A stretch of DNA of 64,000 nucleotides, taken from NCBI GenBank assembly GCA_015680685.1, contig MNCI01000217.1:66670-130669 (forward strand). The letters run 5' to 3'. The position numbers were made by a program, and so were the translations under genes. The DNA is from Gnetum montanum (taxonomy: Eukaryota > Plantae > Gnetophyta). The notes under the pieces were generated by a model. The model saw only the letters and a list, made by a program, of their open reading frames with translations. It did not search any database and was not told where the DNA came from. Shown piece by piece: positions 5,713 through 51,235 of the stretch (positions are counted from its first letter, which is position 1; each line of letters starts with the position of its first letter).

Positions 5713-5730
5713 TGGTGCCATTACCAGGGA
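5713..5730 (+). promoter_or_regulatory. primer-binding site (tRNA-Asp type), element 2
   Basis: TGGTGCCATTACCAGGGA immediately after the LTR. Confidence 0.9.
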
Positions 5731-12072: not shown

Positions 12073-13933
12073 CCCATTCCACTATGCTCCTCACTGTTTT
12101 TGAAATTTTTGTTTTACACTTTTTTATTTTTCACCATCGTTTATATGTTTTCCAATTGTTGCTAACTTTTCCTTTCTTTAATTACTTTTTTCATTTCTTT
12201 GTCGATGATTTATGCATATGTGTGTTTAATTTTTAATTGGTTGCTAATAAGTCGTCTTATTGTCATCAGGTGTCTAGCACAGATGATTTTCATTATGATG
12301 GGTCATGTGCAATAGTCCACCTAGTTTATCTTGCTCCCGCCCTCGCATTATTGTCCTTGGACTTTACGTCTATTTTTATCTCATAAAATCGACAGTGAGT
12401 CGACATCATCCACCCATTCACCCACTCCATGGTTTTCCTTCCATTGGAAACATGCAACCCCTTCACTTAAAAAAATATTTTAATTAATGTGTGACTTGTG
12501 TAGTCCCCAAACTTGGGGATGAACCAATGGTTTGAATCGGGTGTGACTTCAAGGGGTATGAAACATTTGTCATCCTCTTTTGTCCCCCAAGTCACCGGTG
12601 TGTCCTTACGGATTTCCTACCACTCCACGTTCTTCTCTACTAGGAAGCTCCTAGGCAATTCGACCTTGCATGGTGAGGATTCAAAGCACACCCCTTGGTC
12701 GAATGCATGCAAACAAGCATGGGTCTTTGCATGGTGTGGTTCCCATGAAATAACAGAAAAATGAAAAAAAAATCCAATCATAACAATGTGGGAATTCAAA
12801 GCACACCCCTTAGACTGCCTCTCACAGGCCACCAAAAATGAGTTATGGGACTCACTCCGTCCCCTCTAACTTAGTCCAGTTTCACTTCCTTCTTCTCACA
12901 ATTTTTGGAGTGATGATTGTCTGTGGATGCTCTCTACTACTTGGAGGATGGCCGGGGCTTTGCCTGTTGCAGCGATGTCACTATACATGGATGGTTTTGG
13001 GTCTGAACTCAAGAATGGTCCTATTGGGTCACTTAACCACAACTTCACACAGGGTTTCATGTGATCGATGATAGAAATTCCCATTCTCTCATCTCTCTCT
13101 TCACCCATTTCTCTCCGTAACTCACCTCATTGCCTATCTTATGTTTTGAAAGTTCGTTGTGATTTCCATGGACTCTCATGCCTTGGTTGGTTCACTTGGA
13201 TGGGAGTCTTAACTTGCGATCACCATTTCTTAACCCTGAGGTCCACAGACTTCGGTGTTAAGGATATGCAAAGGCTACTACAGCTACCGCCTGCTATGGG
13301 GAGGACCCACTTGCGTATTCTTGGTCTTGTTCATTAAGCCCCCCCCCCCCCATCCTTTTGATTTCGTGGTTAATTGTTTTCATGTCCCATCGCTCAATTT
13401 CTTCCTCGCAGAGTTCTTTTTTCCCACATTCTCCTACATTTGACTCTTTTTCTAGCCCAGGTTACCCTCCTCGTGTCCTCAATTGCGTTCCCAGTCTCTT
13501 ACGCTCTTCAACCACCCCAATTTGGCATTTTAAATTCATCTTTTCAAGCTTTATTTGGGCTGGTCAACGCTGGTCAATGGGTGCGACCCCCTGCGTATAC
13601 ACGGCCATGTATACGTGGCCCCATCAACACAGTGCTCAATCTCTATATATATGCCCATTGTGCATACAATTTCAATCATTTTGCAAACAAATTAGGGGGA
13701 GATTTTGCCATTTTTTCTGCCTAACTTCTTCCCAAGCACCTACGTTCTATCGTGCATCCACATCAACTGATCCTTACCCTCTTAAGCACTAGAAGATATG
13801 CTCTTAGTCATNCTCCGGGGGATTTAATGGAATGCCTATGCTAGCATCATAACTTAGTCAGACTGAGAAGGTGTATAAGGAACATTTTGAGCTACTTGTG
13901 CACAGTCTAATGGGTGGTTATGTTTGATTGTAG

Positions 13934-16788
13934 ATGGAACCAAAACCAAGGCATCCAATGGACGAAGGACCATCACAACCTAGGGACAAGCATCCACGAA
14001 TAGGAAGGGGATGAGGCATGCAACAACCAGAGCACATGGAGGGCTCTCATGCAACTGACCCCCTCCGTGAAGAACCTAATGTGGAATTTGTCCATCAGAT
14101 TCCCAAAGAGGTGATTCCCAGTAGGCAATTGGAAGGGGATGAAACTCCTGGGATAGTGCCACGACTTGAGGTCACCCTGACTCAAGCATGTCTTGATGCT
14201 ATCAAGCTATGAGAAGTGCAACAAATGGTCCTACAAGAGTTAAAATTTGCACCATTTCTAGAAAATGCACTAGAAGACGTGAGGCTTTAGTTGCAAAATT
14301 CTCCTATGTGGCCAATCATCACAACCAGTGGTGAATCTTACTTAGGAGAGACCTATCTCTTCTGGACAAATCGGCAACCAAGGTCCAAAGTAAGAATTAA
14401 GGACATCTATGTCTCTTACTTTGTGGAAGAAATCACATAAGCTTTGGGGTTGCCAGAGATCGGACCAGATGTGACGGAGATTCCCAAACAAGCAGACCCT
14501 GAGGTGAAAGGGGAGTGGATTAGGCGGTGCTATGGGGTAGATCGCAAGGAGTTCAACACTCTAATCACCACGGAAAGGGTGTATTCAAAAATTGTATCTT
14601 ACCACTTAAACCCAACGGTGAGACCCAGCAAAATCATGGCCTTCTCTACTCGTGCATGTGCCGCCTTAAGTGGAAAATTTCTAATGAGTCTTCCATAATT
14701 GTTATTCTTGGAAATTGAAAATAGGTTCACCGAAAGCAAACGTGGAAGACGAGCTCTCCCCTTCCCCTACCTAATCATAAAGTTATGCAAATGGGCAGGG
14801 ATAGCACGATATACTAATGATACACTCCGGCATGCCCCGATTGCCTCATGGAGGGAAATGATGAAGGATAGGACTCTTACCACTACACACACCAAGGAGG
14901 AGCATAAACCACCTTCACCACCTACACAAACAATGAGGTCGGGTTTGCAAACTATTGCAGAACACATCCACGAAATTCGACAATTGCTCTTGAGCCAGCA
15001 AGAGCAATTTAGAAGGGCCAGTGGAGGAGAAGACCCTTCGATCTATCACCCTACAATGAGCCACATGGAGCAAGTGGCTTGATCAGTCAGTTTGCTAGAA
15101 AGAGCAAGGTCGATGTTCTCCGCTGCTCGAATGCAAGTACCAACAAGAACAGATCCTAGCATTCGAGAGGTAACGGTATCAACTCAACAGCTATTCCCTG
15201 TAATTTTAGGGAATGACACTACCTTCTTGGTATGCCTAGAAGATGGCAAAGGGGCGACAGTCCTAGTAATGCAGCACCAAGGATAGGAGATTGCAGCCGA
15301 AGTGGTTGCTGATACGATTGCTACAACTCTCAATGCACCAGTGGCACCTGTACCAGACGTACATGGACTTCTAGGTGTATAGACATCCACCAGAACTTCA
15401 CGTAGCAAGATTGATGCAGCACAACATGAAGAACTGTTGGACCAACTGGTGGGAACTGGGCAACTGCTTCTGGATGTCTTTGACCTTCCAGATAACATCA
15501 CTGCAACCCAGTCGGAGCTGCTCTCAACAAGGGGTAAGAGCCTTATCTTGGAAGGGCAACTTGAAGTTGCTCAAGCTAACTGTCAAAGCTTGGTGACAGA
15601 AGTTGCTCAATTAAGAGCCCAACTTGCCGATCCAGCTCTTCTCAACCATGAGCTCACCCAAGATGAAGCTTTTCAATAACTTCATATCAAACTACAGATA
15701 GTTGAGGATGAGTGAGAGTTGACGATCTTTGATAAGTCCTTGGCAGACACTCATGCACATCATTTAAACAAGGACTTGATAGAGGTTCGCTAGGAGAATG
15801 TCAGGTTGATTGCGAAGGTCCATCACCTGCGTAATGTTGGTGCTGAAAACGAGCACATGAAAAATTTTATTTACCAATAGCAGGAAGAGCTAGCCAGTGT
15901 GAATGCCGATGTGAGAAGGTTGGCCGTTGAGAATCAAAATTTGTCCATGGAGGAGGTTTGAACCTTGTGACAAAAATCTGCCATGGAAATCGTTGCTTGG
16001 AAGAATGAGGCCCTAAAATTTAAAAATGTCAACAATCATTACAGGGACCAAGTGGGATTGCAAAAGGAAGTGAATGAGAAATAGATTCAATTTGCAAAGG
16101 TGAAGATGAACCAAGCGCTCCAATAGCTCCAAGAAGTAGGTGAGGTATGGCAACCTATCTTTGATGGGTTGAATGCCTACAATCAAGCTGAAATCTGCCT
16201 CAAGGAACTACAAATTGAGGAAATGACAGAGTATATGGAGCTTGCCAACCTTCACTATGCAAACCTGGCTATGCTCATAGCCGGGAGATCGTGATTTGAA
16301 TTGGAAAAGCAAGTGGTTGCCTCGTATTCTTTATACGAGGGCGAGTTCTAGGCACACAAGGCAACAAAACAAAAATTGAAGATAGCAAATGTGGAACTTG
16401 AGGTTCTCTGTATGAGTTTTGAAGGACAACGCGTGGTCGTGGAGAATCTAGCCCATCGAATGAATGACTACCAGTAGCTGCAAACATCAATTTGAGCATT
16501 CGACATCGAATAGAAATAGTTCATAGCTTGGTTTGTCAACTTGAAAGAACTTTTCCCTATACTACCATGCCTTTGGGAGGTTCTCTCCTAGCACACATCG
16601 GTGAAGCCGCCTGGATAGTGAACGATCCCAGAAGTAAAGAGAAAAAGATGAGGGCCCTCTTGGAGGCTTTCCGGTTGCCTCCAGAAGTCGCAGCTGCTGC
16701 AGGGAAGCCATCATTTGTGCCACCACTGCCACATGGGCCGAAGGCTGGTGTAGGTTTGCCGAAACCACCGCCACCAGGGACGGTGTGA
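13934..16788 (+). pseudogene. Athila env-like/extra ORF (~950 aa ancestral): putative plant transposon (Transposase_32-like) domain, long coiled coil, Pro-rich tail
   Basis: ORF pieces 14018, 14444, 14699, 15092, 15437 share one frame with ATG 13934, separated only by TAG/TGA/TAA; motif ALPFPYLIIKLCKWAGI; heptad-rich 15440-16480; frameshift(s) before 16492-16788. Confidence 0.8.
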
Positions 16789-17000
16789 TCTTCTCCAACA
16801 ATTTTTGCATCTTTCTACATAGTAGAGAATCCAGGATCAATAAGGTGTTCAATTTTATCTTTGAACACCACCATTTTTGTAATTTGTCCTTCTTTGTGTA
16901 CTTGGGCACTTGGCCCATCATGTGTGTATGTGTGTCATATGCATCAAATCATGTGTGTTGTAAATAAAAGTCCATACCTTCCAAATTGTAAGAGGAACTC

Positions 17001-17031
17001 GAGGATGAGTTTTTACTCAGTCGTGGGGGTA
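17001..17031 (+). promoter_or_regulatory. PPT region of element 2
   Basis: GAGGATGAGTTTTTACTCAGTCGTGGGGGTA abutting the 3' LTR; same motif precedes the 3' LTRs of elements 3 and 4. Confidence 0.75.
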
Positions 17032-17916
17032 TGATGAAGTGTCAAATGGTCGACGCGTTTACTAGGCCACGTATACGGGACCTCATATATGCAGCCGCAT
17101 CGACACGGCCCTGTATACGTGGCCCCGTTTATGCAGCACCTATTTCGGCCTATAAATAAGTGGGCTCCTGCCACACTTATTTACCTTTTTGTCAGTTATA
17201 GCGAAGCTCTTGTAGTTGTTTCTGTGAGGGTTAGAATATTTTCCAAGTGCCCACAGTAGGTGTAAGAAAGGTGTCTGACTCTTTATTCGAGCGCTGATGT
17301 ACCTAAGCCCATTGGTGTGAATGACAATAAAGACGAGTTTTTCAAGCATTCCTTGTAGCAATTGGACTTAGCCACTTCTATGCATTTATAGTTTAATATT
17401 TATATGCTTTAATCATTCATTGAGTTATGTTATTATTATTTTAATTGCTCTTGCTCTCTTATAGTTCGTAGAAACCATAAGTATGACCATCTCGAACGTG
17501 AAACCCAACACTTGGCAACCTAGCGATGCTTAGCGTCTGGTAGCCCAGTAGTGGTTAGGGGATGCTTAGGACGTTCACGGAAGATGGGATTAGATACATA
17601 TGTTAGGAAGAGTTAGGACATAGATTAGGATAATTATAGCTTACATAATATTGCATTCCTTACTTTCCATTCCGAGAATTAGACGTTAGAAGATAAAGTA
17701 AAAAGCTATAAAAATCAGTTGCCTCAATCTCACTTAACCATCACAATCAGAACATCACAAGTGAGGTTGAGAGGACAACGACCGTTCTAACAAAGGGTTT
17801 TGCTGGTTAAAGGTCCGATGTATGTTAAGTGCTCACAGTCTGTAGAATTCGACCGAGTTGGGTGTGAATGCCCGTGATTTGCATGGTTGGGTGTAGGGGT
17901 ACCTAGCCGCTCATCA
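17032..17916 (+). repeat. 3' LTR of element 2
   Basis: TGATGAAG...GCCGCTCATCA; direct repeat of 4807-5711. Confidence 0.97.
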
Positions 17917-18959: not shown

Positions 18960-19155
18960 AATATAAGGTGTTGGAACCTGAAATAAGTGACACATAGGTA
19001 TACCCCAAGATATATTGTCCAATAGAAGTTTATATAACTTAGCATTGCCCATTAGAATCAAACCTATGAACTAGAGCTTTCGAATCAAACCTATGAACTA
19101 GAGCTTCCGAATCAAACCTATGAATCAAGAGTCTTATCAGTAGGCTAACACCTCA
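18960..19155 (-). mobile_element. tRNA-derived SINE copy with internally triplicated B-box segment
   Basis: homologous to the 2529-2874 units; 27-bp unit GAATCAAACCTATGAACTAGAGCTTYC starts at 19055, 19082 and (partial) 19109. Confidence 0.6.
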
Positions 19156-20736
19156 TTACCTTGCTTTTTTCTGCATTTTGTTCGATCTTTGCCAATTTTC
19201 TTTTGTTGCTTCACATGATCTGAATTTTTAACTTCTAAAATTTTTTAACTCATAGAAATATAAGTTGCATGATTGTAGTTTGAAATTATAAAAGAACAAA
19301 AATAATAGTAGAATCTCTATAAAAAAAAATCACATTACAATGGAATTTCTAAATATCATAAAAAGTAAAAGGATAAAGACAACTTCAAAAAAAGTTATAA
19401 GCACATAAAACTTTACAATAACTTACTATCCTAAATCCAAAAATATTGAATAACCTATTATCCCAAATCCAAAAATATTCAACAAGAGAACACTTGTAAA
19501 AGCAATAATGCAAGTAAACCTTTTAAGTTGAATGGAAATAAACCTTTTAAGCTGATAAGATGAGTCAAATGTATAGGCTAGCGTAATCAAAAAGGTTCCT
19601 TACACTCAAATATTATGATAAGTTTGTAAGGTAGAAAGTTTCTATGGGTAAAGTTACTTAAATACAACAGAAATAAAACGCAAAATAGCTCACGTAAAAC
19701 TTCCTAAGAAAAGAACCAGTGGAAAAATAAATAAACATATAATATTATTTCCAAATTTAATTGAAAAATCTCTTCTATAAATTTAGATTTTAAGTCTGAT
19801 TCCTCCTTTAACAGATAAGCTTGCAATCTCTGTCGACTCACTCAATCTGGTGGTCCCCTATATTTAAAAAGAATGGAGGTTGTCTTTACGATGAATTCTC
19901 TCATAGGACCAATCGTTTTGCTGACCGCAATCTCCACCATATTGATCAATTATTTACTATTAGAAATGATTCTCCTACCCTCTCTTGGACACATGCGAAA
20001 GTTAAATGGGGGTTTCAAAGACAAGANCCCATTAGAATCAAACCTATGAACTAGAGCTTCCAAATCAAATGTCTTACCAATAGGCTAATACCTCATTACT
20101 TTGTTTCAATTTTTTTTATTTTTTTTATTTTTTATTTTTTTGCATTTTGTTCAATCTCTGCCAATTTTCTTTAGCTGCTATACACTATCTGAATAAAATT
20201 TTTAACCTATAAAAATTTTTAACTCATAGAAATATAAGTTGGATGATTGTAGTTTGAAATTATAAAAGAACAAAATAATAGTAGAATCTCTAACAAAAAA
20301 ATCACATTACAATGGACTTTCTAAATATCATAAAAAGTAAAAGGATAAAGACAACTTTAAAAAAGTTATAAGCACATAAAACTTTATAGTAACTTACTAT
20401 CCTAAATCCAAAAATATAGAATAACCTACTATTCCAAATCCAAAAATATTCAACAAGAAGACACTTGCAAAGGCAATAATTCAAATAAACCTTTTAAGTT
20501 GATAAGATGAGTAAAATGTGTAGGCTAGCGTAATCAAAAAAGTTCCTTGATAAGTTTGTAAGGTAGAAAGTTTAAAGTTATTTAAATACAACAGAAATAA
20601 AACATAGAATAGCTCACGTAAAACTTTTTAAGAAAAGAACCAAAGTGGAAAAATAAATAAATTAAAAATATTATTGCCAAATTTGATTGAAAAATCTCTT
20701 CTATAAATTTAGATTTTAAGCCTAATTCCTCCTTTA
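19048..20736. repeat. local direct duplication (19048-19810 and 20028-20736)
   Basis: collinear blocks from CCCATTAGAATCAAACC to TTCCTCCTTTA with scattered substitutions and indels. Confidence 0.9.
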
Positions 20737-24630: not shown

Positions 24631-25739
24631 GGCTGTTATGATAGTTTATTTCTAGCAGGAAACCTTGTTCAGCAAGGAGGATTTTTATTCTCTTTTTGTG
24701 TTAAAAAAAAAACAATGAATGTTTATGATAGGTTTATGATTAAATTTTTTTTCTATAATATGGCTTATATTTTATGCAGAATGTTTTTTTATCATACAAG
24801 AATGCTTGTATTTATGCACAATGTTTTTTCGACCTAACTGTCAATCCATAATAAAAGGACACACTGACGTATTCATTATGTTTTTGAACGTTATTAACAA
24901 TGCTCTGATGTTAAAAGTCATGAATATAAGTGTACCTTTGATATTTGAATGTTTTACCCTCGATGTGTTAACAGCCGCTAGAAAAACACATATAGATGCA
25001 CACTTGTTTTTTTTTTCTTCTATTAAAATTGTGACCCATAATAAAATTTCATTTAACCAAAACCATGGATGGGATCCAGCCTCAAGAGGTTGTCAATATG
25101 ATGATTAACAACTCTTTAGCAAGAAAAAATCAAAGAACGGAAGCATCCATGACATGAATACATGACTAAAAAATGTTAGCATCTCAGATATAGCGTAAAT
25201 GTGAAATAAACATCAAAATAATGATTGTACTGGTTCATAATTAGAAATCCCAATTCTAGTCAAGAATATACAAAGATTAGTATTTTGAAATTAATAATGC
25301 TAATATACTTTGAGCTCTAGCTTAAGTCAATATAGGAAACATGCAAAATTGATTTGCTATAATACCAAGCTAAACAAACATTTAATCATTACTGTTATAC
25401 CAATTTGTCAAAAATCAAGATATAAAAAACAACTATGAAAGATGAGGCTATTTATACAGCATAATAGCCAATCCATTTCAGAAAAAAAGATATGAGAATT
25501 TACTTGGATCATATTCATTTAGTTTTCCAAGAATTAACAGCCAATAATTCAGCAAAATAAGATGATAAAAATCTGTAGCTAGAGGAAAACATTTTAAATT
25601 AGATTTTTGTTTATTAGCCCCTCTGCTCAATAATTAATAAAAAGATAACTAAAGTATAACTGAGAAGATCATAGTTGAGTAGGGTTATGAATTTCTTAAG
25701 TTGGTGAATCATAGAAAGAAATTTAAGATCAGCATCATG

Positions 25740-26729
25740 GAAAGAAAATCAAAGCTAAAGCTGAGGAATTACCAAAATGCTAATACTTAGAAATTTATTT
25801 CATGATTTCCAAAATTAAGATGGGCCCAAGATGCTCTTGCTTTCTGTCTACAGTACCAATTGTTATATCAAGGATCCTTGATCCTTGTTGATAAATCTTT
25901 ATGCCAAATTACTCCAAATCTTTATGAGTATTTACAATCCCATTTGGAAATAACTCAACTGTCATTTAGGCTTGAAAGTGCAAGGATGGGTGGAGAGATC
26001 CACCAAAACATGGATTCAACAATCCAAGATCTCAAGAAAAATATCAGATTAATGAAGCATTTAAAAATGGTGAAAGAGTTTTGGAAAGAAATCATATTTC
26101 AACCACAAATGAAACAAGGCTGCAACTATACATCTACCTTCTTCAATTTTCAAAGCCCTCTTAAATGATTCTTTTTCTTCTAGCCATTATGTTGGTTTTT
26201 TCCCCATTGTTGTATCCTTACAATCTTTTACATTCTCTCCTACTATTATTATTAGTAGTAGTTACCTCTATGCTTGTTGTAAATGTGCCTTTTGCTATTA
26301 TAGTTGCTCATTAGTAGTAATAGTCGTTGCAATCCTTCTTTCTCCTCTTCGTTTCTTTACACTTCCCTCCCAATTCATTCTTTCCATTTTTTTTAAATTT
26401 CGCCTACCTTTTTCATTTAGTCTATTTTTAGTTTCTTTAATTTAAGTAACTTTCTATTGTAGCTATGTTTTCTTTTTAGTAATGCAAGTAACTTTCTATG
26501 GTAGCTATGCTTTCTTTTTAGTTTTTCTAATGTAAGTAACTTTTTATGGCAGCTATGTTTTCTTTACTAATGAGTCATTGTTGTTGCTCATTAGTAGTAG
26601 TAGTAGTTGCAATCATTCTTTCTCCTGTTCATTTCTTTACTTTTCTCTCCCATTTCTTTCTCTCCATTATTTTTTTATTTTGCCTACCTTTTCATTTAGT
26701 CTATTTTTAGTTTCTTTAATGTAAGTAAC
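25740..26729 (-). repeat. dispersed repeat with decayed L1 post-RT sequence; split by LINE A, resumes at 32617-32880; second copy ~42800-43750
   Basis: collinear similarity with 42800-43750; internal short duplications 26240-26730. Confidence 0.7.
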
Positions 26730-26999
26730 ATTTTTTTGGAAAAACGATTGAGAGATTTTATTTCGAAAAAAAAGAAAGAAATGTACAATGTACACAAAGG
26801 TCATTGACCCAAGTCTGCAAAACCCAACCATGTGACATAGTGGTCACCTGCAACTTTTATTGTGAGCTCCCATGAGCCTACAGAGCGTAGCCTCCTCCCA
26901 CTACCCAAAAACCCTCAACCCAAGGTCCCAACCCATTATCAAAAGGGTAGGGGCGATTGAAAATAACAATGACACACCCTTGAAGGGCCAAGAGCCCCC

Positions 27000-29900
27000 T
27001 CCCCCCTCGATGAGGCTGTGCACTACTTGACCTCATTAGGCTGTAAAGCACTGCATCCCGTAGTCTCTGCTAAATGTGACCTGGACTCCAGACCCTCAAT
27101 CGCAATCGAGGTCTCTGATGCGTCTGTGCCATCCGCAGCCTATTGCATCATTGTCCCTAGCCGAAGTCCCAATTGCTAATTCTTTGCTCTAAGCTATGCC
27201 AGTCCCGTCTAGTGCTCTGTGATCATCACTTCCATCCACCTGAGGTCTTGCAAGCATGAGGCGTTCACTTCCCTTTAGGCCTCCTATCATCTCATGTCCT
27301 CCCACTAGAGCTGCCACTGTGCATGCTCCTCTAACTACGCCTACTTGGCAGCTAGTCGGCATTCGTCAAGCAATGTTGATCTCTAGCACTCCATTCTTGT
27401 GCTGGCTCCATGGCTGTGGACAGACCCAGAGCTTTGGTGTCTTCCAACCCAGGACCTCAGTGGTTATGTGCCTGCGCCCTGTGGTGCTGTTGCTGTTGGT
27501 ACACAAGAGTTGGCATCAAGCGAGCAATCAGCACTCCCCCACGCCAATGCTCAAGGATCACCCCTGGGTGTTGCCTTGGCTGTTGCCTCCGAAGGGATTC
27601 CTAGAAAAATTGGGGTAAGTTAATTGGGGAACCTTGTCAAATATGCTTGAGAAAGGTGAAATGCACCCCCATCAGTTTGTGGGGATACCTAGACTATACA
27701 ACGTACTGCTCCACCATGAGTGCCACATCCCTCCAAACCCTTTGCAATTCAGACTTCCAGATGTGTCCACTAGTAGTCCTGGGAAGAACTCTATTGTGTC
27801 TGTCTGAGCCCTTGCAACCAGTGCCATGATCTCCCTCGCTGCCTCCACTCCTAGCACAACAACTAGCACCTACACCATGACCTCTATTCTTTTGCCCTTG
27901 TACTACATAGCATCTCCCACCCAACTGTCGTAGAATTGCTATGCGAACAGGTTCGGTTCACCTTCCAAGCGTTTGAGCATCTCCACCCATCCCATCCTTT
28001 CAATGAACGACCATAACTCGGGTAGACAGGAAAATTCTATCCATGATAGCTCAAACAACAGTCATTGTTCCATTGTAGTGGTTGTAGGAGGTGGTTGTCC
28101 CTAAAAAATTAGAGAATTCCTTCGTTTCCACAAGACCCACAATGTGGCAAGTTGTACAGAGTCCCTATGGAACCCCACGGTGGGAGAGAGATTTGTAGCC
28201 TGCCACACTTCCTAAGAGAACTGACATCCATAAATAAGATGGTGCAACGTTTTAGGTGTTGCTTGGCAGCGTGGACAGCTATCGTCCAACCGTATCCCCC
28301 TCTCTCTCAACGTGGCCCTCACTAGTAGCACCTTGTGTTTAAGCAGCCAACCGAATGCCTTGAACTTCTCAGGAAGATGAGCTTTCCATATCTCTGCCCA
28401 CCCCTCTTCTTGCGGATATCGGACTTTAACCAACTCCATCGAGTGCTGCCCCAATAATCTGAGCTGCTCCACCACACGAGCATGGCAGCAAAAAATTTTC
28501 CATAGTTGGGAGCAATCCAACTGAACCTCCCATCTCTAGTATTTTTGTCGTAGAATTTGCACCCATAGTGCCACTCCTACAGTTTGCCCCATGTATCTGT
28601 TCAGTAGATAGTGTGTGCCCAAAGCCATCTCATGTCCAAACCCCAAAATGCCAATGCCCCCCGCTAGTTTGGGCTGCGTTGTTACCATCCACAACACTAA
28701 GTGCATCTTTCTGCCACCTTTGCCACTTGACCACACAAACTCCCGCATAATGCTATCAATGTGCACCATTGTGGCCAGCGGCGTTGCCATTGACACTGTG
28801 AATTGGGCAATTGCCATCAGAACCATCGTAGCCAACACCATCTTTCCTTTCTGGGACAGAAAACGACCTATCCAAAGCATGGTCCACTGCTGGACCCGCT
28901 CCACCAATCCTTGCCAAGTCTTCTGCCATTTCCAATAAAAAATAGGCATTCCCAAGTATGTGTCATGGGCTTGGCCCTGAAGTTGGCCCTGAAGAATGCC
29001 TAACATTTGTATAATTCTGGCCTGCACCATTCCCTTTGTGTGGGTAAAATAAATGGTGGACTTCCCTTTATTGACTTCAATGCCTACCTCACGCTGCATC
29101 CTCTCCATCGCCCATAATAGGGCCACAGTCTGCAGCACCGCAACCCTAGAGAAAACCATTGTATCATTCATGTAGTGGGCTGCTAGACTGTGCACCCTAG
29201 CAACATGAAGTCGCTAAACACCTTCAACAAGGCAATAGCCTTTAAACAAATCCATGATAATGATAAACAGGAGCGGTGATAATGGATCACGTTGTTGCAA
29301 TCCATGCCCTATTCCAACGAACTCACATAATCTCCCGTTGATGTCAAGAGAGTAGCAGCTAGCCACTTTGTTGCATTTGAATGTAGACATGGACGAACTT
29401 GGCATCAAACCCCTTCTCCATCAACACTACCCTGAGTGTTGCCCAAGTCACAGTATTGTAGGCCTTGGTAATGTCCAGTTTGATGCACATTCTTGGAAAC
29501 CTGGCCACCCTCACCGAGTGTAGAATCTCTTGCAAGAGCAACACTTGGTCCTAGAGATAACGTCCCTTAATGAACTCCACCTGATGCTCCCCAACCAGCT
29601 TCCCCATTAGCAGCACTAAGCACTTGACCAACATCTTGGAAAAAATTCACAATAGAGTGTTGTAGACCCTGATGGGTCGGAAATGTCCCGATGATGATGG
29701 GTTAGGGACCTTGGGCAACAACACCACCATTGAGTAGTTTATTTCCCTCCTTACCTACTGCCAACTACGCATACTGTTGTATGCATCCAGTAGGTTGGGC
29801 CCTAGGAAATCTTCATGCTCCCTAAAAAATTCTATCGACCATCCATTTGGTCTTGGAGCCTTGTTAGACTACATGGATTTCATTGCCCGCCACAACTCCT

Positions 29901-31179
29901 CCCGCTAGAAAGGACGCAATAAGTGTGAGTTATTAGCACTTGTAATGACCTTTGTGACTCGCAGAGAGATAGGTTCTGTAGCACGCCATCTCTAGATGTC
30001 TCCCTGAAACTTCTGCAAGGCATTTAGCGCCCTCCTGTGGCTTTGTGGGCCTCCCCCAGCAATGCCCTTGAGTAGATCCTAGATTTTATTCTATGGGCCC
30101 TATTGTGTTTGGCCATGGCAAAGAAGAAACATGCATGCTTGTCCCCTTCCTACAGCCAAGTCACCCTTGACCACTATCACTAGTAGCTCTCTTCCTCCTT
30201 GTCTAGCTCCTAGAGTTCTCTAAGTAGCTTCTATTCTTCAATGTCCTGGCCAGCCCCTGTTTCCTACAACCTTTGTATCTCCAACAATTCCTTCTGCACG
30301 TGCTGTCTGTACCCACGAAAGCTATACTTGTCATCCAATGTTTTGGCCTTAATGCCATTTTTAAGGCCCTCAAACTATCCCGCAAGAACTGTCAAGGCTC
30401 TTGCGCCCTAGTGTAAGTTTTCTAGATTTCAGCCACCATTGGTTTTTGCCAAGCCTTGTGCAACCAAGACTGCTCAAATCTTAAGGGTTGGGGCTCTTGA
30501 CTCTCCTCCAATTGAAATTGGCATAGTATGGTTTGATGATCTGATGTTTGTTGCTCCTTGTCCTTTGCCTTGATATCATACTCCAACATGAGGTGCTCAC
30601 TCACCCATACGCGATCGATCCAAGACTGGATGCAATTAGGGCCCCTTTGGTGATTGCTTCAGGTGAATTTACACCCTAGGATCTCCAAGTCAATGAGCTC
30701 ATACTGACAAAGAAACTCAATGCACGCCTCGGCCCTTGGAGGACCAGTGCAATCGTTGCTAGATTTCTCCTAGCAACAGAGCCTCTGGTTGAAATCTCCT
30801 AGCAACATCCATCTGCAGTATTGGGGATGACCCTAGCCACATGTTGAAGGTCTTGGACTTGGGCCTCCCAATTTTGTGCCCCATAAAAATTTGTGATCCA
30901 AAGATTTGCCGGCGACACACAGATAGTTTAACTTCAATCAGAATCATCCACGAAATTGATTGAGATTCTGGCCAGAATGGCTAGACCTCCTGCTTGGCCC
31001 TTGTTGGGCACAATGTGGGTTGTCCATCCCTCCCATATTAGCAACTTCCGTTCAGTCCTTTGCACCTTTGTTTCTTGTAAGCAGACCACATAGCAACCTG
31101 CCTCCCTAACCATCACTCGTAGGGTATTTCTTTTGTATGGGGTACCCTAGCCATGATAGTTCTAGGTGAGGATCTTCAT
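27000..31179 (-). pseudogene. LINE A ORF2: APE endonuclease, RT, zf-RVT, extra C-terminal domain and coiled coil
   Basis: MKILT*NYHG start, VVCLQETK, SDHQTI (APE); KLDITKAYNTVTW, GLQQRDPLSPLLF, YMNDT (RT); KFKAFGWLL..CPRC..TLHHLIYGC (zf-RVT); LWVLWKRRNSLIF; frame continues. 3' end approximate. Confidence 0.9.
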
Positions 31180-32400
31180 GGAGATGTAGACACCTGTCGG
31201 TGATACACCTCCCGCAGTGTCCACTGCACCCCCAAATCTAGATCCAGCTACATGAATTTCTTACACATTGTTGTTCTATCGGACCGCCCAATCTTGCTGT
31301 TTGGTCAGAGCACCACCACTCTAAGTTGACCTTTTGCCTACCTGGGTTGAATGTCCTTCATTTTTGGTTTAGCAGAGCCTCATCCCATAGTGATCCATTC
31401 CCCCAACGGGGGCAACTCCAATGCTGAGGTTGGCTGCTGCCCATGGAGCCAACAACGTGCAAGGTGAGCCAAGGACCTCCCCTAGCCCCCCACCCTTAGA
31501 CAACCCCTTTGATTTGCCATATGCTGGCAACGGGTCTTACGCACCCTCCCCACCCTAGGCATCTGGTCCTCCTGCATCTATTGCTGTCCATCTATCATTG
31601 TTTGTTAGTGTTTGTATTGTGGTCCCCCATCTCCCATCGAAGATGATCCCTACTTCCATATTTGGCCCTTCTTCCCCATGATAGTCCAGCCTTGAGCAGC
31701 CTTCGTTGGTCCTCGACAGCGTTCTAATTCTGGTTGCCTTTTCCTAGACCTTACATCCCTAGTGCTCCTTGCATCGTGTTGCCAGGTTTTCAAATTTTAC
31801 GTAGATCTTTTCTTCTCCGTCGGCGATGTCCAGCACAATCTCCTCAACTCTATCCTCTGACTGCAGCGACCTCCAAATGTAGAAACAGGCGTACCCCATC
31901 TAGTCCATGGATTTTGTAAATGCGTCAAACTTGATAAATTCTCTAAACAACCCTACCAAAGACTTCAGAAACCTCGGTTCCCAGTATTCCAATGGCAAAG
32001 CGAACAGCCAGATCTAGATCGATGCACAATCAAATAGGCATTTATCTCAATGTGCTTCAGGTCACCATGGAGCCAGGGCTAGCCCCCCGAGCTCCATAGA
32101 ACCACGGACCCCCGCCAGCAACACCTTGTCCCTTTCCTCCATCGTCGGAAAATTGAATAGTAGTCGATCATCCACCAAAGTCAGGACACAGACATCCTCC
32201 AACCCCCAAGTCATGTGAACCCATTTTCAGATGACATCCATATGTAGCCTTACTCCTTCAGAAACAAATTTCCTAGTAGACTCCACTCTAGTTCGTGCAT
32301 GGCCTCCTTGGGCAGACGCCCAACCCTAACACCCATGACCGCTTCGTCTTGTGAACAGGCATCAAACTTGGTGCCATTACCCACCTGTGAGGCAACTCAA
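31180..32400 (-). pseudogene. LINE A ORF1 (DUF4283-like)
   Basis: WVHMTWGLEDV..LVDDRLLFNF..ERDKVLL..IWLFALPLEYWEPRFLKSL; aligns with LINE B ORF1; boundaries approximate. Confidence 0.75.
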
Positions 32401-33239
32401 ACCCTAGTCTCTCACGCTACTCCCTCCTAGGCATTCACCTGGCTGTGCGCGGGCCCATCCACAGTCTTGCCAGTACCACCACCTGCTACAGCCATCCCTA
32501 TTGCTGCTCCTGCTGTGGCTCCCACTCCCATTGCCATCGCCACTCTTGCTTCCATCATCACCACCGCTCCCACTTCCATCGCCACTCCCATTCCCATCCT
32601 TCCTCAATGGCTTATCTAATGTAAGTAACTTTCTATGGCAACTATCTTTTCTTTTTATCTTACAAATGAATCCAAAATTAATTCTTTGGTTCACACATTC
32701 CAAAAGCCACAAAATAAAAGTTAACCCTTCCAGCTAAAAGGACTTTGCTTCAATTCCTCCAAAAGATGATTTCTGGTTATTTTTAAAGCAAGAAAACACA
32801 CTCCAGCCCTTATTCTAGCAAAATTATCTATTAAAATAAAACCATAGAAGATGATGAGGGTTTCATGAGCAAGATTTAAAGAAAACACAAAATCAAAGTA
32901 TCAAATTAAGGAAAAACCTTCTCCTTCAAACACTTTGTAGTACAACCAATGTTGCATCATGTTATGAGCATCGGAAGAACATTGTGTGACCTTTCTACAA
33001 CTATTGAGAGGGGATTCTGGTTTTGACTTAATAAGTTTTATTCCTCCAAAAGATCATTAAAGAAAGTGACGTAATTGTCCTTGATTCATAGGTGATGTTC
33101 TTCTTCTTTTTAATTTTATTTATACATACCACAAAATTGTAAAATGGTAATAGATAATACCTATTATCATATTTATTTTTTGTATGTGTAAAGCTAATTT
33201 CTTTCTGATTGAACTTGAGAAACTCAACTCATGCAAAAT

Positions 33240-33800: not shown

Positions 33801-34105
33801 TATACTATATTTTTGAAGAGAAGGTCAGGCAAAATTTGTATTAAACAAGAAAAATAGAAAAAAGAAATGTACAAAGCAAAAAGAAGGCCATCCCATATGG
33901 CGGGAGCAAGATGCCTAGTTCGCCACCCATAAACATAAAATCCACCCCAAAGCCGAAACCCCTTGACAACAAAGGAAACACCTGCCAACAATAAAGAACC
34001 TATCTCCCCATATACCGGAAATGTTAAGGGAATAACAGAGGCACAACGCTAGCCAAACCCAAAATGGGGCATGGGCCAACAACAACCCTATTTCCCATCC
34101 AAACA

Positions 34106-37100
34106 TCATATCACTGTGCCCCCAACCAAAATGTTAGAGTCTCTTGGACAACCGCACACAATGGCATCAAGCTCGTTCTTGAGTGTGAATGTTATCGAGC
34201 ATCCTCCTATGCTGTTTAGTATCAACAAATGCTGTGGCATGGTGAAATTCTTTGGTAGCCTCTGTGGTCCCTTTCTCATCCGAATGTAGCTTGGTAGTAG
34301 TTCGTTGAATGTGCTGATAGAGCACCCCCCATGACATTTGACCATAGATATCCATAACAACATACGGGCATTTGTCCTCCCAGAGCCACAACCTAACCCT
34401 ACTTTTATGAGCATGATCAATTTGATGTTGATGCTCCACCACGTCCTCTCTGTCCGACTCATGCTCAGCCCACTTAGATTGCTCATGTTTAGTGTTTTGT
34501 TGCTCCACCTGCTGCATTTCTACTTTGATTTGTTCTCGTAGCAAATTTTCCAATGTAGCCCTTAACACTGACTCCTTAAGATCCCACTCACACCACATCT
34601 ATTTTTCCCTATTCACCATCGCATGCTTCACCGCATTGAGTTGTTGAGTAAACTTCGGCTCATGGGCTTCCCACTTGGCTTCTGAAGTGATCCGCTTGGC
34701 CCATTTGGCCTCCTCAATTGCCTCTTCAATCAGCTTTGGCTGCTGCCATATGCATGCTCTCCTTGGCTAGCTCAGTTTCCATCTCCCTAAGCATGCTTTG
34801 CGCTTCCAAGCATTGAATTTGCAATGGAGCAGCCTCCAGCTCCTCCCTAACAACCTGCACTTCCTTCGGCACTTGCCCACCATACCCCTTATGTGGCCCC
34901 TCATCCTCCATGGTAGACGAAACCCTCCTGTGAACCACAACTTCCCTCCCCCTACTATAGACAAACTTCAGCGTTGGCCATAGTTGCAATAATCAACCTT
35001 GATTTCCAAAGGGCAATAATCAGCCTTGAATGCCACTTGTGTTGTTGCCGCTGTAAGGTGTTCATAAAAAACCTAGGTAGGTTGACATGTTGGCGACATT
35101 TCAAACATTTCAGAAAACCAAAGTGGACCCCTTGTAACTTTGACACGTTTCTAGACTGGATGAAATAACAATCCACCAAATCCACCGCTTCTTGCCAAAA
35201 CCTCGGTAGCATTGATCTTGGGATTTGCCTGCTTGATGTTTTTGGGATGGCCCACATGAAAAAGACCTATGCATCATGAAATCCCCTGCCATGAGGAAGA
35301 ATGACTTCCCCTGATAATGGAACCCAGGCAATCAGCCAATGATGCCTTCTTGAGAATGATCTAGACTCTTTTGAAGTTTGTGGTGTCTCCTTGCCAATTC
35401 CTAAAAAAAGCGTCATTAGGCAGCTTTGGGTCCCCCCATAACAGTTGTAGCACCTCATACCAACCGACTTTACAAATGAGCTCTCGTAACTCGATGTTTT
35501 GCCAAAACTTTTTGTAATCAGGCTCAAAGGTAGGAGTTTGCCCCATCACAGTCATAGCCTCATGCCAGAGCCTATGCCCTTGAACCACCAACTGTACTAG
35601 ACCCTTGAACCGCCAACTGTACTAGAGCAGGCAACTGCTTGTCATAGAAAATCAACGCATTGTGAGCCCTCAAAGTCACCCAATAGATTGCAACACTCAT
35701 TAAACCACTAGTGAGATCCAGTAGAAACGAAGCAAGTGATTGCACTAATGCCTACCACACTTGAATTTGATGTGTGCATTCATAAATGAAATGTTGAAGT
35801 GTTTCTAGGGCCTGCATGCAACACGGACACGTGTCCACCATGTGCATTCTGCGACTTTGCAAAACTGCATGCATGGGTAGCGCATTATGATTCATCAACC
35901 AAAAAAAAGATCTTAATTTTTTTGGGTAAGTAGCCTTTCCACAGGTTCTGCCACCCACTCATTGTAGGGAATTTACATCTTAATGAGAGCCTGGGGTGAC
36001 GCTGCCATCATTCCAAGCGTAGTCACACTCCTAACATGCTCACAGACTGCTCTCCAAATGAGAGAGTCTCTATGGTTTGTTGTCCACTATGTATACTTGG
36101 ACGTGATGATTTGTATCCATTGAGCTTGATTGGTACCCCGATGGGTAATACGATTGGCTAGTATCTGATAACCCATCAAAACTAAATCTTGAAACTTCAT
36201 TACCCCCAATCCCCCTGCCTCTATGGGCTGAGCAATAGTGTCTCAATTGACTAGGTGCAACTTCGACCCCCCTTTCCCACCTGACTAGATGAAGTTTCGG
36301 ACAATTTGGTCAACTTTATTCACCACCGTTGTAGGGGGGGCGGGTGGGGCGGCCCGGGGATGCACAATCATCGACAAAATTGAATTAGCCAGCAACATTC
36401 AGCTTTTTTGTGTTAAGAATCTCGTTGTCCAATGCTCCACCCATTGTTGTAGCTGACGAATAAGGGTGCTCCAAGTATCTTTCCAATGCCACTAAAAAAC
36501 TTGAAGCCCCAAATAACTATCTTGATTAGTTCCTACCATCATGCCCAACACCTGCAGAATGCACCCCTTAATTGTATTGGACACATATGACATATATATA
36601 GTGCACTTAGCTTTATTGACCTCCAGCCCAATTTCATTTGCCATTTGCTCAATAGCCCTATTGAGAGCCTATGCTTGTAGCATAGTCGCATGTGAGAAGA
36701 TCATTGTGTCGTCGACATAATGTTCCATCACACAGTTAATCCCAACAATGTTAAGACCATGGACCCCTTCAACCTGGCAATATGCCGATAGCGTATCCAT
36801 AGCAAGAATGAATAGGTATAGGGAAAGAGGATCAGCTTGTCGCAATCCTCTCCCCTGGGAAGCAAACCCCCACAACCTATCCCCAATATCAAAGGAATAA
36901 GCTCTAGAAGCCTGAATTTGAATACATAGAGCAATGAAACCAATATCAAAACCCTTCTGTGCCATAATGTTAGCTAGGGCATCCTAGCTAATAGCATCAT
37001 ACACCTTCTCAATGTCCAACTATATGCACATTCCAAGATACCTAAATCTTTGTATTGAATGCATCACCTCCTGGAGTAGTAGGATTTGATCCTGAATGAA

Positions 37101-38648
37101 ACGTGCCCTAATGAAATCAGTCTGGTTCCTTCCAACTATCTATAGCATGAGTGGCACAAGCCTTCTCACAACATCTTTGTAAAAATCCGGATCAAAGTAT
37201 TGCACACCTTGATAGGAAAAAATTGTGATGGGTTAGATGGATTAGCCACCTTAGGCAGAAGCACAATTCTCAAGTAATTAATTTCATGTCAAACTTCTTG
37301 TCTGTGCAACATCTAGTTAAACGCCTCCAAAAGATTAGCCTTTAGCACATCAACAAATTCTTTGAAGAATTCCACCGAGGGCCTAGTTCGACCACATGGT
37401 CCCCAACGCCTCCTCCAATTCTTGCCAAGGGAAAGGCTCCAACAATATTTTGTTTTCCACCTCTCCCAACACTGACCTCATCGACATAGAATCCACCTAG
37501 TATTACTACATGATATGGGCCACATCCCGAGGAGCAATCAAGCACTTCCCATTATGCTAGAGCCTCAGCTCCTTCACTGCCCAATTGGCTTTTGCCATTG
37601 CAAAGAAGAACTTTGTGTTTTTATCCCCCTCACGCAACCAATGATCCTAAGCGCATTGTTTCCAATAAACCTTCGCTTTAGCATCAAGGTCCTAAAGCTC
37701 CTATAGTACACATTTCTCTTCCGTCGTAACCTCTTCACCTCACCTGCCTAACTTGCAACATAGTCAAATGAGACAACAGCTCCATTTGCCCCTTCCTAAA
37801 CAAGAACTTCTCCTCAGCCTTTAGAGACCGAATGGCCTACTTTAGACAAGAAATGCCCTTCTTCAAGAAGTCTCTAGGTTTGTATGTTCATCATAATCTA
37901 CCCAAGTTTGTTTCACCAGCGAGGGTTTAGTCAACCAAGATCACTCAAAATGAAAGGGGAAAGTTCTCAGGCTAGCTATGCTCCCCACCTGACAACATAG
38001 ATATTAGTGGTCAAATGCAAGTCTCTCTTTTCCTTCCAACCACACCCCTGACTCCATCAAAATGTGAGTGCTAGCCTAGATATGATCGATCTGAGAGAGG
38101 ACCAATGCCGTCCCCCCACATCGATTGCTCCAAGTGTACTAGCATCCTATAAGCTCTACATCAACCAAATCATGCTCTTGTAAGAATTCCAGACACTATG
38201 TGCTTCCTGGTGGGTTTGCCATATCACCACTGGTCTTCTCCCAAGCAAATAGGTGCTAGTTGAAATCACCAATCACAATCCGTTGGTTAATGTTGATGAG
38301 AGTGGCAATTCGCAGCAACTCCTGCAATCGTTCTTGCTAGAGCTAGGATCCATAAAAGTTAGTGAGCCATGTTCTTTCATCTAGAAGCAGAACCATAATA
38401 CTCCAGTTAGCCGAAACAAACTGCATGAACGGTCATTTTGCCAACATGGCCAAACCCCCTGCTTTTCCAGAATTGGGCACAAAATGAGTTTGCCATCCTA
38501 CCCACTACGATAGCTCAATCTCCGTAGCCTACAACTTTGTCTCTTGCACACAAACACTGTCACATCCCTCCCACCGCACTAGATCTTGTAGGGTATTATG
38601 TTTATAGGGGGTACCTTGCCCCTTGCAATTCCACGAAAGAATCTTCAT
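34106..38648 (-). pseudogene. LINE B ORF2: APE, RT, zf-RVT, extra C-terminal domain and coiled coil
   Basis: MKILSWNCKGQG; GLRQADPLSLYLFILAMD, YVDDT; KLRSFFWLM..CPCC..ETLQHFIYEC; YWVTLRAHNALIF; extension ORFs 35361-35591, 34955-35257, 34726-34989, 34167-34598. Confidence 0.9.
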
Positions 38649-38649
38649 G

Positions 38650-39770
38650 GCTTATTGGGTGCACATTTCTTGTACACCTCCTTCAAGGTAGGCTATACTC
38701 CCAAATCAATCTCTATTGGCATGATTTTTCCACGAGCCATGGGCGAAAGCGGGCATCCAATTTGGCTTAGCTCTTGAAAGACAGGAAAACCTCCTCTCAA
38801 CCCTATGCACTTCTAGGATTTCATCCATCCTAGGCAATGAGGATCCCCACACAACTCCCACCCGGTCTCCAAGCAGGGGCACTCTCACCTCCTTCACCTT
38901 TTGAGGCGAGGGGAGAACATCCTCTCTCCTAACCCCTTCTAGACTTCGAGCCTGCCTCTTTGACGTCAACCTCACACCTGACTCATTGGACTGCTTAGGC
39001 ACCGCACCATGCTCTTGCCTCTCAAAATGCGTAGGTTGAACAAGCACTCTCATTGCCGTAGAGTCCCAAAACCTTCAGCTAGAGGCCTCTGTTTCACAAG
39101 GCAGCCCCTCCTCCCCACTTCCATCCACTGTTAGGGCTACAAGGGGGGTGCTCTTTCATGCAACTCCTACAAGTCGCCTCCAAATGGTTCCCTTTGCCGC
39201 ACACCGTACACCCAGTGTCCGAAACCCCTTCATGCACCCCCTACGCATCCACCCCCCAGATTCTCATATTCCACTCTCAAGGTCTCCTTTCCTGCTGGCG
39301 TCTCCAGAACAATCTCCTACACCCGATCCTCCAACCCCAATGGTCTCCAAACACAGAAACAGGCATACCCCATATGTTCCATTGATTTCGTATACTTGTC
39401 AAATTTCACAAATTCTCTGAACATCCCTGCCAGCGACCTTAGAAACTTTGGTGTCCACCATTCCAAAGGCAAGTCTAGTACCCTAAACCAAATCTGGTGC
39501 TCGGGTGAAAATGTCTGCATCTCAGTGGGCCCCTGGCTGCCAAGGCCAGCCCTTGAGCACCATAAAACGATGGACCCACAAGTAGCACCTTTTCGTTATC
39601 TTCAATAGACTGAAAAATGAATAGGAGCCTGTCATCTACCAAATTGTGCACCTGCAACTTCTCCAACCTCCATGCAGCATCCACCCATCAACGGATAAGG
39701 TCCATCCTGGGGCGGGCCCCCTTAGAAACAAACTTGCCTAGAAGGCTAAGCTGCAATGTGCACAAACCTT
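38650..39770 (-). pseudogene. LINE B ORF1 (DUF4283-like)
   Basis: WVDAAWRLEKLQVHNLVDDRLLFIF..EKVLL; IWFRVLDLPLEWWTPKFLRSLAG..FDKYTKSM. Confidence 0.8.
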
Positions 39771-40110
39771 CTTTCTTTCGGATTGACCCTATCTACTTAG
39801 GACATTACATCAATGATGTTTTCAATTTTCTTCAAAAATATGTTGAGGCTTTTTAATTGTCCAACAAATCCTTTGTGATTTCCTGGACGTAATAAAAATC
39901 TCCAGTTTCTAGTTTCCACTTTCATCAATTATAAATTCGCAATACCAAAAAGAAATATTAAATAAGCAGCCCAAAAATAAAGCCTTTATTTAATAATTTT
40001 AGTTTACATCATAGTCAAAACCACATCCATGTTTAAAACATAGTTACAAAAAGAAAACAAGAAATGAAAACATTCAAAAACACATCACAAAATAGCCTAA
40101 CACAACCTGT

Positions 40111-41749: not shown

Positions 41750-43200
41750 AAATATAACAATGGAGTAGTATTTTATAGACACAAAAGTCAATCAACTTTT
41801 GTTGTCATTGAAAATTCATCATCATAATTTCCAAATCTTGCAATAGATGTAGAACCTTGGGCCACATAGAAATAATTGAATTGTGTTTCTTGAAATATCA
41901 AGTCATTTCTTGAATTCTAGATACTTATTCCTATATAGGTAAGAGAGCTTTCTACATTGACTTTTCCAATGATTTACAACCACAATATTTCATTTTTGTG
42001 CCAAATCATTAAAAGATTCATGGAAAGGCTTCTTCTTTTTCATGTTTTTGCCCAAAGATTTGTACTACTTGAGCAAATAGACAACACCCTAAAACAAGAT
42101 TGGTATCCTTTAAAACCCCATGTCTAGGATGTTTATCATGGCCAATCATGTCATGAGCTCATAACTAAGTTAGGGTGGGTAATTCATTGGATATAGCCTT
42201 GTTCATAAACAACTTAAGTCTTGGTGTCAAGGTTGTACAATGTTATTCAGCATGGATAGACTCATGATTAATAGGATACCATTGTTGATAAATGAACTTT
42301 GTTGTGTAATGGCTTCATCAATGCTTACCCATTGATGTAACATGGTTTTATGTTTTCTATTCCTCTACAAAAAGGGATACATTAATGATCCTTGGGGCCA
42401 AATGAAATGACATCATTATGTAAATATTTTACCTTTACAATCTAAATCCAAAACTTATTTTCATTTTCAATTTGCCAAGCAAGCTTGCTCAAAAGGACTA
42501 GATTTAGACCTAATTGTTTTAGGCTTGCTATTTTATATTGTGTTGAATGTTAGGCTTTACAAAAAGTCATGAACAACAAATTAGTATCATGGAAATGTGT
42601 ATTCTTTGATAGATCTTGAATGTTACAAAAAGAGATAAATTGCATAATGTAGACATTAGAGGAAGGCATGGATTAGCTTCTATTTCAAATAAGCTACAGA
42701 AATGACATTTTAGATGGTTTGGTCATGTGCCAAAAAGATAAAAAAAGGTTGCCACATCATTGTCCTAGGCAAGCCACTAAAAGAAGACCAAAAAGACATG
42801 GGAAGAAAATCAAGGTCAAATATGAGAAATCACTAGAATGTTAATACCTAGAAATTTATTTTAAAATTTTCGAAATCAATATGGGCCTAGTATGCTTTTG
42901 CTTTCTGCTAGTGGTACTAATCCTCATATCAAGAATTCCTAGTCCTTGTTGACAAATCTTTATGGCAAATTGCCCAAATTGTTATGCGTGTCTCCAAGTC
43001 CATTTGGAAATAACTTTCATCCATATCATTTAGGCTTGATAGTGTGAGGATTGGCTGAAACAACCAGAAAATTGAGGATTTAACAATCCAAGATCTCAAA
43101 TAGAATATTAGATTTATGAAGCATTCAATTATGGTGAAAGAATTATGAAAAAACCATATATTGACCACAAATGAAACAAAGGTGGAACTATGCATACACC
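41750..43200 (-). mobile_element. highly decayed L1 ORF2 3' portion
   Basis: GLGILDM-like and PRLKLFM..CLFAQV..SRNDLIF zf-RVT-like remnants. Confidence 0.5.
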
Positions 43201-43749
43201 TTGTTTAGTCTTCAAAACCCCCTTGAATGGTGTCTTTTCCTCTAACCAACAAGTTCGACTTAAACCATTATTGTTTCCTTGTAGGCTTTTACATTTTCTT
43301 TTGCTATTGTTATTATTATTATTTTTTGTTTACCTTTGTGCTATTAAAGATGTGTTTCCTACCGTTTGTAGTTGCTCAGTAATTGTTGCTGCTATTATCC
43401 TTTCTTTTTTTCTTTTCTTTCCTCTCATTGCTCTATCCCTTTTATTTTCTTCATTTGCTTGCCCTTTATATCTAGCCTATTTTTGGTTTCTTTAATGTAA
43501 CTCACTTTCTAAGGCAGTTATATTTTCTTTTCCTCTTATAAAATTGATCCAAAATAAACTCTTAGGTTCAATTTTCCCTAAAAGTATTCCCCCTCCCATT
43601 TTTTAAAATTAAAAAAAAAAAATCTTACCCTTTCATCCAAGATGACTTTGGCTCAATTCCTCTCAAAGATGATAAAATATGTATTCCACTAGAATTCTAT
43701 TATAAAATAAGACAATAGAGTACCATGGATGAGGGTTTCATGAGCAAGA

Positions 43750-47777: not shown

Positions 47778-47920
47778 TTGGCGTCGTTGCCAGGGACTAA
47801 GTATTTGTGCACCGAATAGAACATAAAGGATGTCACTCACATCGTTGGGAGCCTAAACGAACCTTCGGGTTAATTAATTAAAAGAAAAATTTTATAACAG
47901 TAATTAGCACACCGATAACA

Positions 47921-50900: not shown

Positions 50901-51235
50901 TGGAAGAATGTTTAGCATTGCTTCCATGTGATCGATGTGCCCAGGAAATACAAATTCAACGGTGCTTGTATGTAGCAACCACACCAGTAGTAGACACCCC
51001 ATGGTTGATAACTACTAGGAAGAGCAAACTAATATGCACGGAACGAACTGAGGAAACTCATGCTAACAATGAAGGCATAGACACATTGAAGTATGAGCGT
51101 CGCCAACTTCCACCCCTCAACCTAAAAACATCAGTGGGGAGAAGTTGGGCACTTTTATGACATTCAAATAGACGTTCGTTATTTCAGATCTCTCCCTTAC
51201 AATTCAGTCATGGGGGAGATGACCACCTATGCTAA
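47921..51235 (+). pseudogene. gag: gag-protease polyprotein ending in the pol C-terminal peptide
   Basis: collinear with element 2 gag/PR (ALLNLGSRVNLI); ends RSLFQISPLQFSHGGDDHLC*. Confidence 0.88.

Follow-up and report, generated by a model that had tools for sequence, protein, structure and literature searches.

Two decayed L1 retrotransposons in a 64,000-nucleotide stretch of the Gnetum montanum genome carry, behind the zf-RVT domain of ORF2, a segment of about 190 residues followed by a charged tail. The presence of this extension is confirmed, and it is conserved. Comparison of the two elements, hereafter LINE A and LINE B, shows that the segment lies inside the element, is common to two divergent families and was, on the evidence of its codon pattern, kept under protein-level selection. 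Such an L1 variant with an extra accessory domain is apparently undescribed. In what we take to be an old plant L1 lineage, we read segment and tail as the likely C-terminus of ORF2p and, by analogy, as a chromatin-binding module, probably of the Transposase_32/plant-mobile/VANC type, a reading to which we give slightly less than an even chance. Positions are those of the whole stretch analyzed (the window), which is plant-like repeat DNA with 38% GC.

LINE A is recognized as a full-length decayed plant L1 by its domain matches, its TSD, its A7 tail and its colinearity with LINE B (Table 1). About 1.35 kb separate its zf-RVT from the A7 tail. As claimed in the initial annotation, the extension is bounded by the TSD, here of 13 bp, and lies upstream of the poly(A); the TSD is located within a short local repeat, which makes it a slightly weaker boundary marker. 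The peptides quoted in that annotation are found at their claimed places on the minus strand, and its statement that the ORF2 frame runs on past zf-RVT holds for the first half of the domain, which is in the zf-RVT frame with one TAG in between. A single frameshift had been proposed; the three quoted pieces lie in three frames, so that at least two are required, and a frameshifted stretch near 27850-27800 separates the two domain halves. Nor are the stops restricted to TAG and TGA, as had been stated: a TAA occurs at 27277 in the tail, where stops take up 10 of the 90 codons. By themselves the LINE A frames prove little. They are no more open than the alternative frames, with 4 stops versus 5 and 3, 3 versus 4 and 4, and 10 versus 8 and 2. 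GC content by codon position in the extension (0.53/0.37/0.53 and 0.58/0.35/0.55) matches that of ORF2 (0.53/0.37/0.54), and helices are predicted at low confidence in the second half of the domain.

Several further features of LINE A and its site were observed. The element sits in a dispersed repeat with short internal tandem units (25736-26738), a 73%-alike copy of which is found at 42797-43531, and one contig joins 26439 to 32620, which points either to a site not occupied by LINE A or to a paralogous unit. The element begins at its 5' end with a purine-rich stretch of short repeats with a Gly/Ser-rich reading (32440-32600, minus strand), nearly private to LINE A (depth 1-23). At the ORF1/ORF2 junction and endonuclease start (31071-31321), read depth is about 10 times that of the rest of LINE A; this is a short stretch common to LINE A and a much larger repeat family.

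Table 1. Coordinates of the two L1 elements and of the Gypsy element (element 2) in the window
Feature	Position	Strand	Remarks
LINE A	26731..32616	-	full-length decayed plant L1
LINE A TSD, 5' copy	32617..32629	-	13 bp; flanks LINE A
LINE A TSD, 3' copy	26717..26729	-	13 bp; behind A7 tail (26737-26731)
LINE A ORF1 DUF4283 domain	31888..32241	-	PF14111, E 1.7e-8
LINE A ORF2 endonuclease	30455..31180	-	frameshifted; PF03372, E 9e-6; tblastx blocks with LINE B
LINE A ORF2 RT	28995..29703	-	two frames; PF00078, E 3e-9 and 5e-4
LINE A zf-RVT	28203..28430	-	PF13966, E 1.4e-14
LINE A linker	28074..28103	-	10 codons, W-x-x-W-K-x-R-N-x-x-I-F motif to Met 28073; TAG at 28103
LINE A extra domain, first half	27834..28082	-	zf-RVT frame; 4 stops; gap-free to LINE B 35555-35307
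LINE A extra domain, second half	27502..27798	-	3 stops; gap-free to LINE B 35260-34964
LINE A charged tail	27100..27370	-	third frame; Pro/Gly-poor
3'-terminal motif common to both LINEs	A 26765..26797, B 33883-33851	-	
LINE B	33810..39800	-	second decayed L1 family, same layout; ends approximate
LINE B extra domain	34958..35555	-	35555-35307 and 35266-34958; 1 stop in 191 codons
LINE B linker tandem duplication	35579..35628	-	25 bp; sole break between zf-RVT and domain
LINE B charged helical tail	34150..34960	-	two frames; about 250 codons
Element 2, Ty3/Gypsy	4807-17916	+	LTRs of about 0.9 kb (4807-5711, 17032-17916), 89% alike; RT/RNase H/integrase
Element 2 weak Transposase_32 match	14375..14803	+	PF20167, E 3e-4, 21 bits (cut-off 45)

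LINE B has the same orientation as LINE A and is about 1.2 kb away from it; a TSD was looked for around LINE B and not found. Pfam profiles identify an AP endonuclease, an RT and zf-RVT in that order in both elements. With the LINE A extension as a tblastn query against the window, matches are obtained at 35492-35322 (E 1e-6) and 35215-34964 (E 8e-18), directly behind the zf-RVT of LINE B. The two elements are colinear from ORF1 through the 3' motif, and the segment has the same position and the same order of parts in each. The domain of LINE B is the better preserved of the two, its second half being free of stops.

The two copies of the domain align without gaps, with 26 identical residues out of 83 in the first half (31%) and 36 out of 99 in the second (36%), against maxima of 13 and 17 identities in 10,000 shuffles. 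Control blocks from the undisputed part of ORF2 show comparable values: 24/62 (39%) in zf-RVT and 45% identity in one RT block. Nucleotide matches at the first, second and third codon positions amount to 43/40/28 of 83 and 47/63/33 of 99 in the two halves, and to 34/41/22 of 62 in zf-RVT; the blocks were picked by protein similarity, which biases them toward this pattern, equally so for the control blocks. Third positions of the domain are near random (0.33), as they are in zf-RVT. In the aligned blocks, all seven stops of LINE A correspond to sense codons in LINE B, and the single stop of LINE B to a sense codon in LINE A. DNA of the two elements is alignable in patches only, at 65-68% in ORF1 and endonuclease, and no DNA-level alignment was found in the extension. 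From the protein matches, the codon pattern and the position of stops on the partner's sense codons, we infer that the segment was coding and under selection for most of the time since the two families split.

The initial annotation held that the extension is fused in frame to ORF2. Inferred as it is from two broken copies, fusion stands as the better reading: the first half of the domain is in the zf-RVT frame in LINE A, and the frame is also kept in LINE B, where 25 stop-free codons lead from the motif to the aligned Met when one duplication unit is discounted. The linker of LINE A is 15 codons shorter (10 versus 25), a whole number of codons, and it is because both copies keep the frame despite this difference that we favor fusion over a separate ORF3, as probably about twice as likely. 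The active ancestor would then have had one continuous ORF2, from endonuclease through tail. Alternatively, domain and tail may form an ORF3 behind ORF2, starting at the shared Met by reinitiation or read-through, whose free product, on the model of VANC or the Athila accessory ORF, would have a trans-acting role, for instance in countering silencing. The similarity of the two copies does start at an aligned T-x-M-x-Q with the Met at the same place in both, the linkers differ in length, and in LINE A a TAG follows the motif immediately, 10 codons ahead of the Met; furthermore, the accessory ORFs of Gypsy elements are described as separate genes (PMC7264820, PMC11728184). However, decay in these copies has most often produced TAG (16 of the 21 stops in the extension frames), the stretch from zf-RVT to the Met is stop-free in LINE B once the duplication is disregarded, and the ORF2 frame is kept in both elements. 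We consider a separate ORF3 unlikely.

What kind of domain this is can be approached from its motif order: a helix with GW, an aromatic helix, a short hairpin and LG, then a W..Y..R helix and a helix with N-L-P-x-F-F. Compared by eye, this order would resemble that of the Transposase_32 type, and a similar one seems to recur in unannotated proteins from conifer and yew genome projects. We treat the resemblance as a lead and consider kinship with the Transposase_32/plant-mobile/VANC type a little more probable than the opposite. A likeness to an ORF of element 2 had been proposed from a motif pattern; it proved undetectable by pairwise, HMM or profile-profile comparison. With hhalign, the extension reached probabilities of 0.2% and 0.3% against element 2, for two decayed rows compared with one decayed sequence; a two-row HMM gave no match to element 2 (shuffle p 0.62 and 0.76), and shuffle p-values across tests ranged from 0.3 to 0.8. 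The anticipated Pfam families were not recovered either: four half-domains of 85-130 residues from LINE A and LINE B, the halves scored apart, gave no match to PF20167 (Transposase_32), PF03078 (ATHILA) or PF10536 (PMD). The near-complete domain of element 2 itself reaches only 21 of the 45 bits for PF20167. Resting on two decayed sequences cut in halves, these are weak negatives on the family link.

Other searches with the extension were equally negative. No match was found in NCBIfam, and PDB sequence searches returned a best E of 0.16 in one case and nothing in the other. Word-indexed protein searches, which are weak evidence in all three cases, gave nothing among 121 candidates for the first half, nothing among 134 for the second-half alignment and nothing among 4043 for a query running from RT to the extension, despite the RT that it contains. 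The two stop-free frames of LINE B had no usable match in the ESM Atlas, where recognition stayed below the tool's reliability mark, and three scans of viral contigs gave no match. Two Pfam candidates, DUF5504 (E 0.02) and Tubulin-bind_CPAP (E 0.027), were rejected as below cut-off. We also rejected a 39-residue pattern match in prokaryote genomes, a chance hit to a stop-rich cyanobacterial frame, and a 9.8-bit profile match near 23000 of the window, in AT-rich, stop-riddled DNA. AlphaFold models built on the two-row alignments are mainly helical (pLDDT 51 and 46). In fold searches with these models, the best Z values were 4.7 and 3.3 and no Foldseek match fell under E 0.7, in libraries that do not include predicted plant proteins; run on such low-confidence predictions, these searches indicate neither a new nor a different fold.

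The initial annotation had seen no RNase H, and indeed neither copy has an RVT_3 or RNase_H match at E up to 1 or 10; the same Pfam profile search recovers the Gypsy RNase H in the window at E 2e-23. The term 'env-like' was misleading, as the two copies have no conserved membrane helix in common, the one hydrophobic window in LINE A (2.02) scoring 0.97 in LINE B and the other windows remaining below 1.2. Among charged residues conserved between A and B, eight are basic and four acidic.

These results bear on a further reading, in which the segment is fused to ORF2p and unrelated to Athila or PMD, as a host-derived or so far unclassified helical domain that would likely bind nucleic acid or a host protein. 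It would account for the lack of a match in Pfam, NCBIfam, PDB sequences, the protein collection, the ESM Atlas and the fold libraries, and the excess of conserved basic residues agrees with it. However, those negatives come from two decayed half-domains and from models of pLDDT 46-51, the word-indexed route is a weak one here since even the RT-bearing query found nothing, and both the motif order and the domain-plus-tail layout parallel the element 2 ORF by eye. An unrelated domain is, in our estimate, an improbable outcome, about on a par with a separate ORF3. As to kinship with the Gypsy modules, the fullest version of it, in which a plant L1 lineage acquired from a Gypsy element a module of the plant-mobile/VANC/Transposase_32 type, coiled coil included, and joined it to ORF2p for chromatin targeting or anti-silencing, is tentative, and we place it clearly short of an even chance.

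The tail is charged and poor in Pro and Gly, with 90 codons in LINE A and about 250 in LINE B, and no alignment was found between the two tails. A coiled coil had been proposed for it. Using a home-made heptad score, we found one stretch of LINE B to be significant (its score was reached by 1 of 200 shuffles), in line with the proposal, which was not borne out for the LINE A tail (p 0.23) or for a second stretch of LINE B (p 0.28).

Element 2, the Gypsy element of the comparison, has a long 3' sense ORF (about 13900-16500) that combines a weak Transposase_32 domain with a charged tail of some length. A related LTR element occupies 46888-54010 on the plus strand, with LTRs at 46888-47537 and 53350-54010 that are 90% alike and a gag-protease region 67% alike to that of element 2 over 2.2 kb; no RT follows the protease region in translation, and the element may be internally deleted. 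Right after its second LTR, at 53995-54030, are three or four TTTAGGG units resembling plant telomere repeats. Other repeats in the window include tandem units of about 230 bp with 92% identity (43768-44974), a 730-bp duplication (19079-20736) and, within 54865-60572, a 580-bp direct repeat (54865-55446 and 60015-60572) whose copies may be the LTRs of a further element.

To look for the segment in other copies, we aligned four DNA runs to the window at 80% likeness and counted contigs per run. In all four runs, three positions of the domain (28004, 27702 and 27548) each have a different letter in 6 to 16 contigs per run. About a dozen other contigs per run cover the extension, which is therefore a trait of the family and not a one-off insertion. 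Over the domain, summed depth (306, 289 and 274 in X1) is close to that of the zf-RVT bin (265), depth being no measure of copy number, and it drops to about 50 in the stretch that separates domain from tail. A single contig jumps from 26993 to 28472, without zf-RVT and extension, and three joints omit parts of the tail. A second copy bridging zf-RVT to the domain was not among the 32 pieces listed of about 11,800. At five listed variant sites, the other copies carry the LINE B residue at two and do not match LINE B at three. In nine control loci with ordinary L1s, taken from metagenome contigs, the segment is absent from all nine, and the three control L1s that were translated end about 50 residues past the W-x-x-W-K-x-R-N motif.

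A nested insertion would be missing from other copies, and both LINE B and the other contigs have the segment. That the stretch is a nested insertion, a one-copy 3' transduction, a long 3' UTR or a decayed RNase H is highly improbable and largely refuted by LINE B: LINE A frames no more open than chance and a few contigs without parts of the extension could be cited in its favor, against which stand two families that align in protein and not in DNA, with third positions near random, the many other contigs covering the extension, the missing RNase H match and the mainly helical models.

In its DUF4283-bearing ORF1, endonuclease, RT, zf-RVT, TSD and A tail, LINE A resembles the plant L1 clade exemplified by poplar Celine, whose ORF2 is described with no such domain and with a 189-bp 3' UTR (PMC11288735). 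Ta11-type L1s are reported to have acquired an archaeal-like RNase H that occupies the same slot, following the CCHC motif and closing ORF2 (PMC5348765, PMC5203782), whereas the slot is filled here by a domain of about 190 residues that is no RNase H and by a charged tail of 90-250 residues. Acquisition of a foreign domain at the end of ORF2 is also described for insect R1/TRAS LINEs, where it is a viral SF1 helicase (PMC4686597, PMC5563155); clade, host kingdom and domain all differ from those of LINE A and LINE B. Like the Athila 3' accessory ORF, the extension combines a helical domain with a charged tail behind it, is located at the 3' end of its retroelement and runs in sense to pol. Athila/Transposase_32 domains (PF20167, related to PF03078) occur on LTR elements as a separate ORF, and the searches with the decayed extension yielded no sequence or profile match to them. 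The PMD (PF10536; MAIN/MAIL1)/VANC module has passed among Gypsy elements, host genes and MULEs (PMC5418596); the literature passages on these domains mention no LINE as a carrier. In the passages that treat them, plant ORF2 variants are described as RT with or without RNase H only (PMC5203782, PMC5348765, PMC11288735) and accessory ORFs are described on LTR elements (PMC7264820, PMC11963269, PMC9289625), with a precedent for ORFs shared across retroelement classes (PMC5408684). Searches of full-text papers brought up no description of a plant LINE built in this way.

In L1 retrotransposition, ORF2p associates with the RNA that encodes it, nicks DNA and carries out reverse transcription there. 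By analogy, an ORF2p with the extension would remain on its own RNA and enter the nucleus, where the added helical domain may tether endonuclease and RT to chromatin and in this way direct insertion or protect new copies against silencing; the charged tail may serve self-association. Since a C-terminal domain reaches the insertion site with the enzyme, a chromatin tether would be its simplest role. For a domain fused to an enzyme present in one or two copies, genome-wide anti-silencing would also seem a poorer fit than tethering where the element inserts; for a free ORF3 product, anti-silencing in trans would be the likelier role. We thus hypothesize, by analogy, a function in chromatin targeting or anti-silencing. 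Among the modules on which the analogy draws, VANC is described as an anti-silencing protein with structural homology to MAIN; coiled-coil pentamers and many host contacts are predicted for both VANC and the Athila domain (PMC13547354). PMD is reported on Gypsy elements and in fusion with MULE transposases (PMC5418596), and a sunflower Athila Transposase_32 ORF is predicted to be nuclear (PMC11728184). In the Celine study, no targeting domain was found (PMC11288735).

Plant L1 ORF2 is described as comprising an endonuclease, an RT, a zinc knuckle and sometimes an RNase H, and the extra domain adds to this layout. Its retention since the two families diverged to near-random third positions implies a function needed by these LINEs. 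The finding bears on how plant LINEs choose their insertion sites and on the function of accessory domains of the Athila/PMD type. Should the Gypsy origin be true, one and the same module would be shared by LTR and non-LTR elements, by DNA transposons and by host silencing genes; even if unrelated to Athila or PMD, the segment would represent an unclassified transposon domain.
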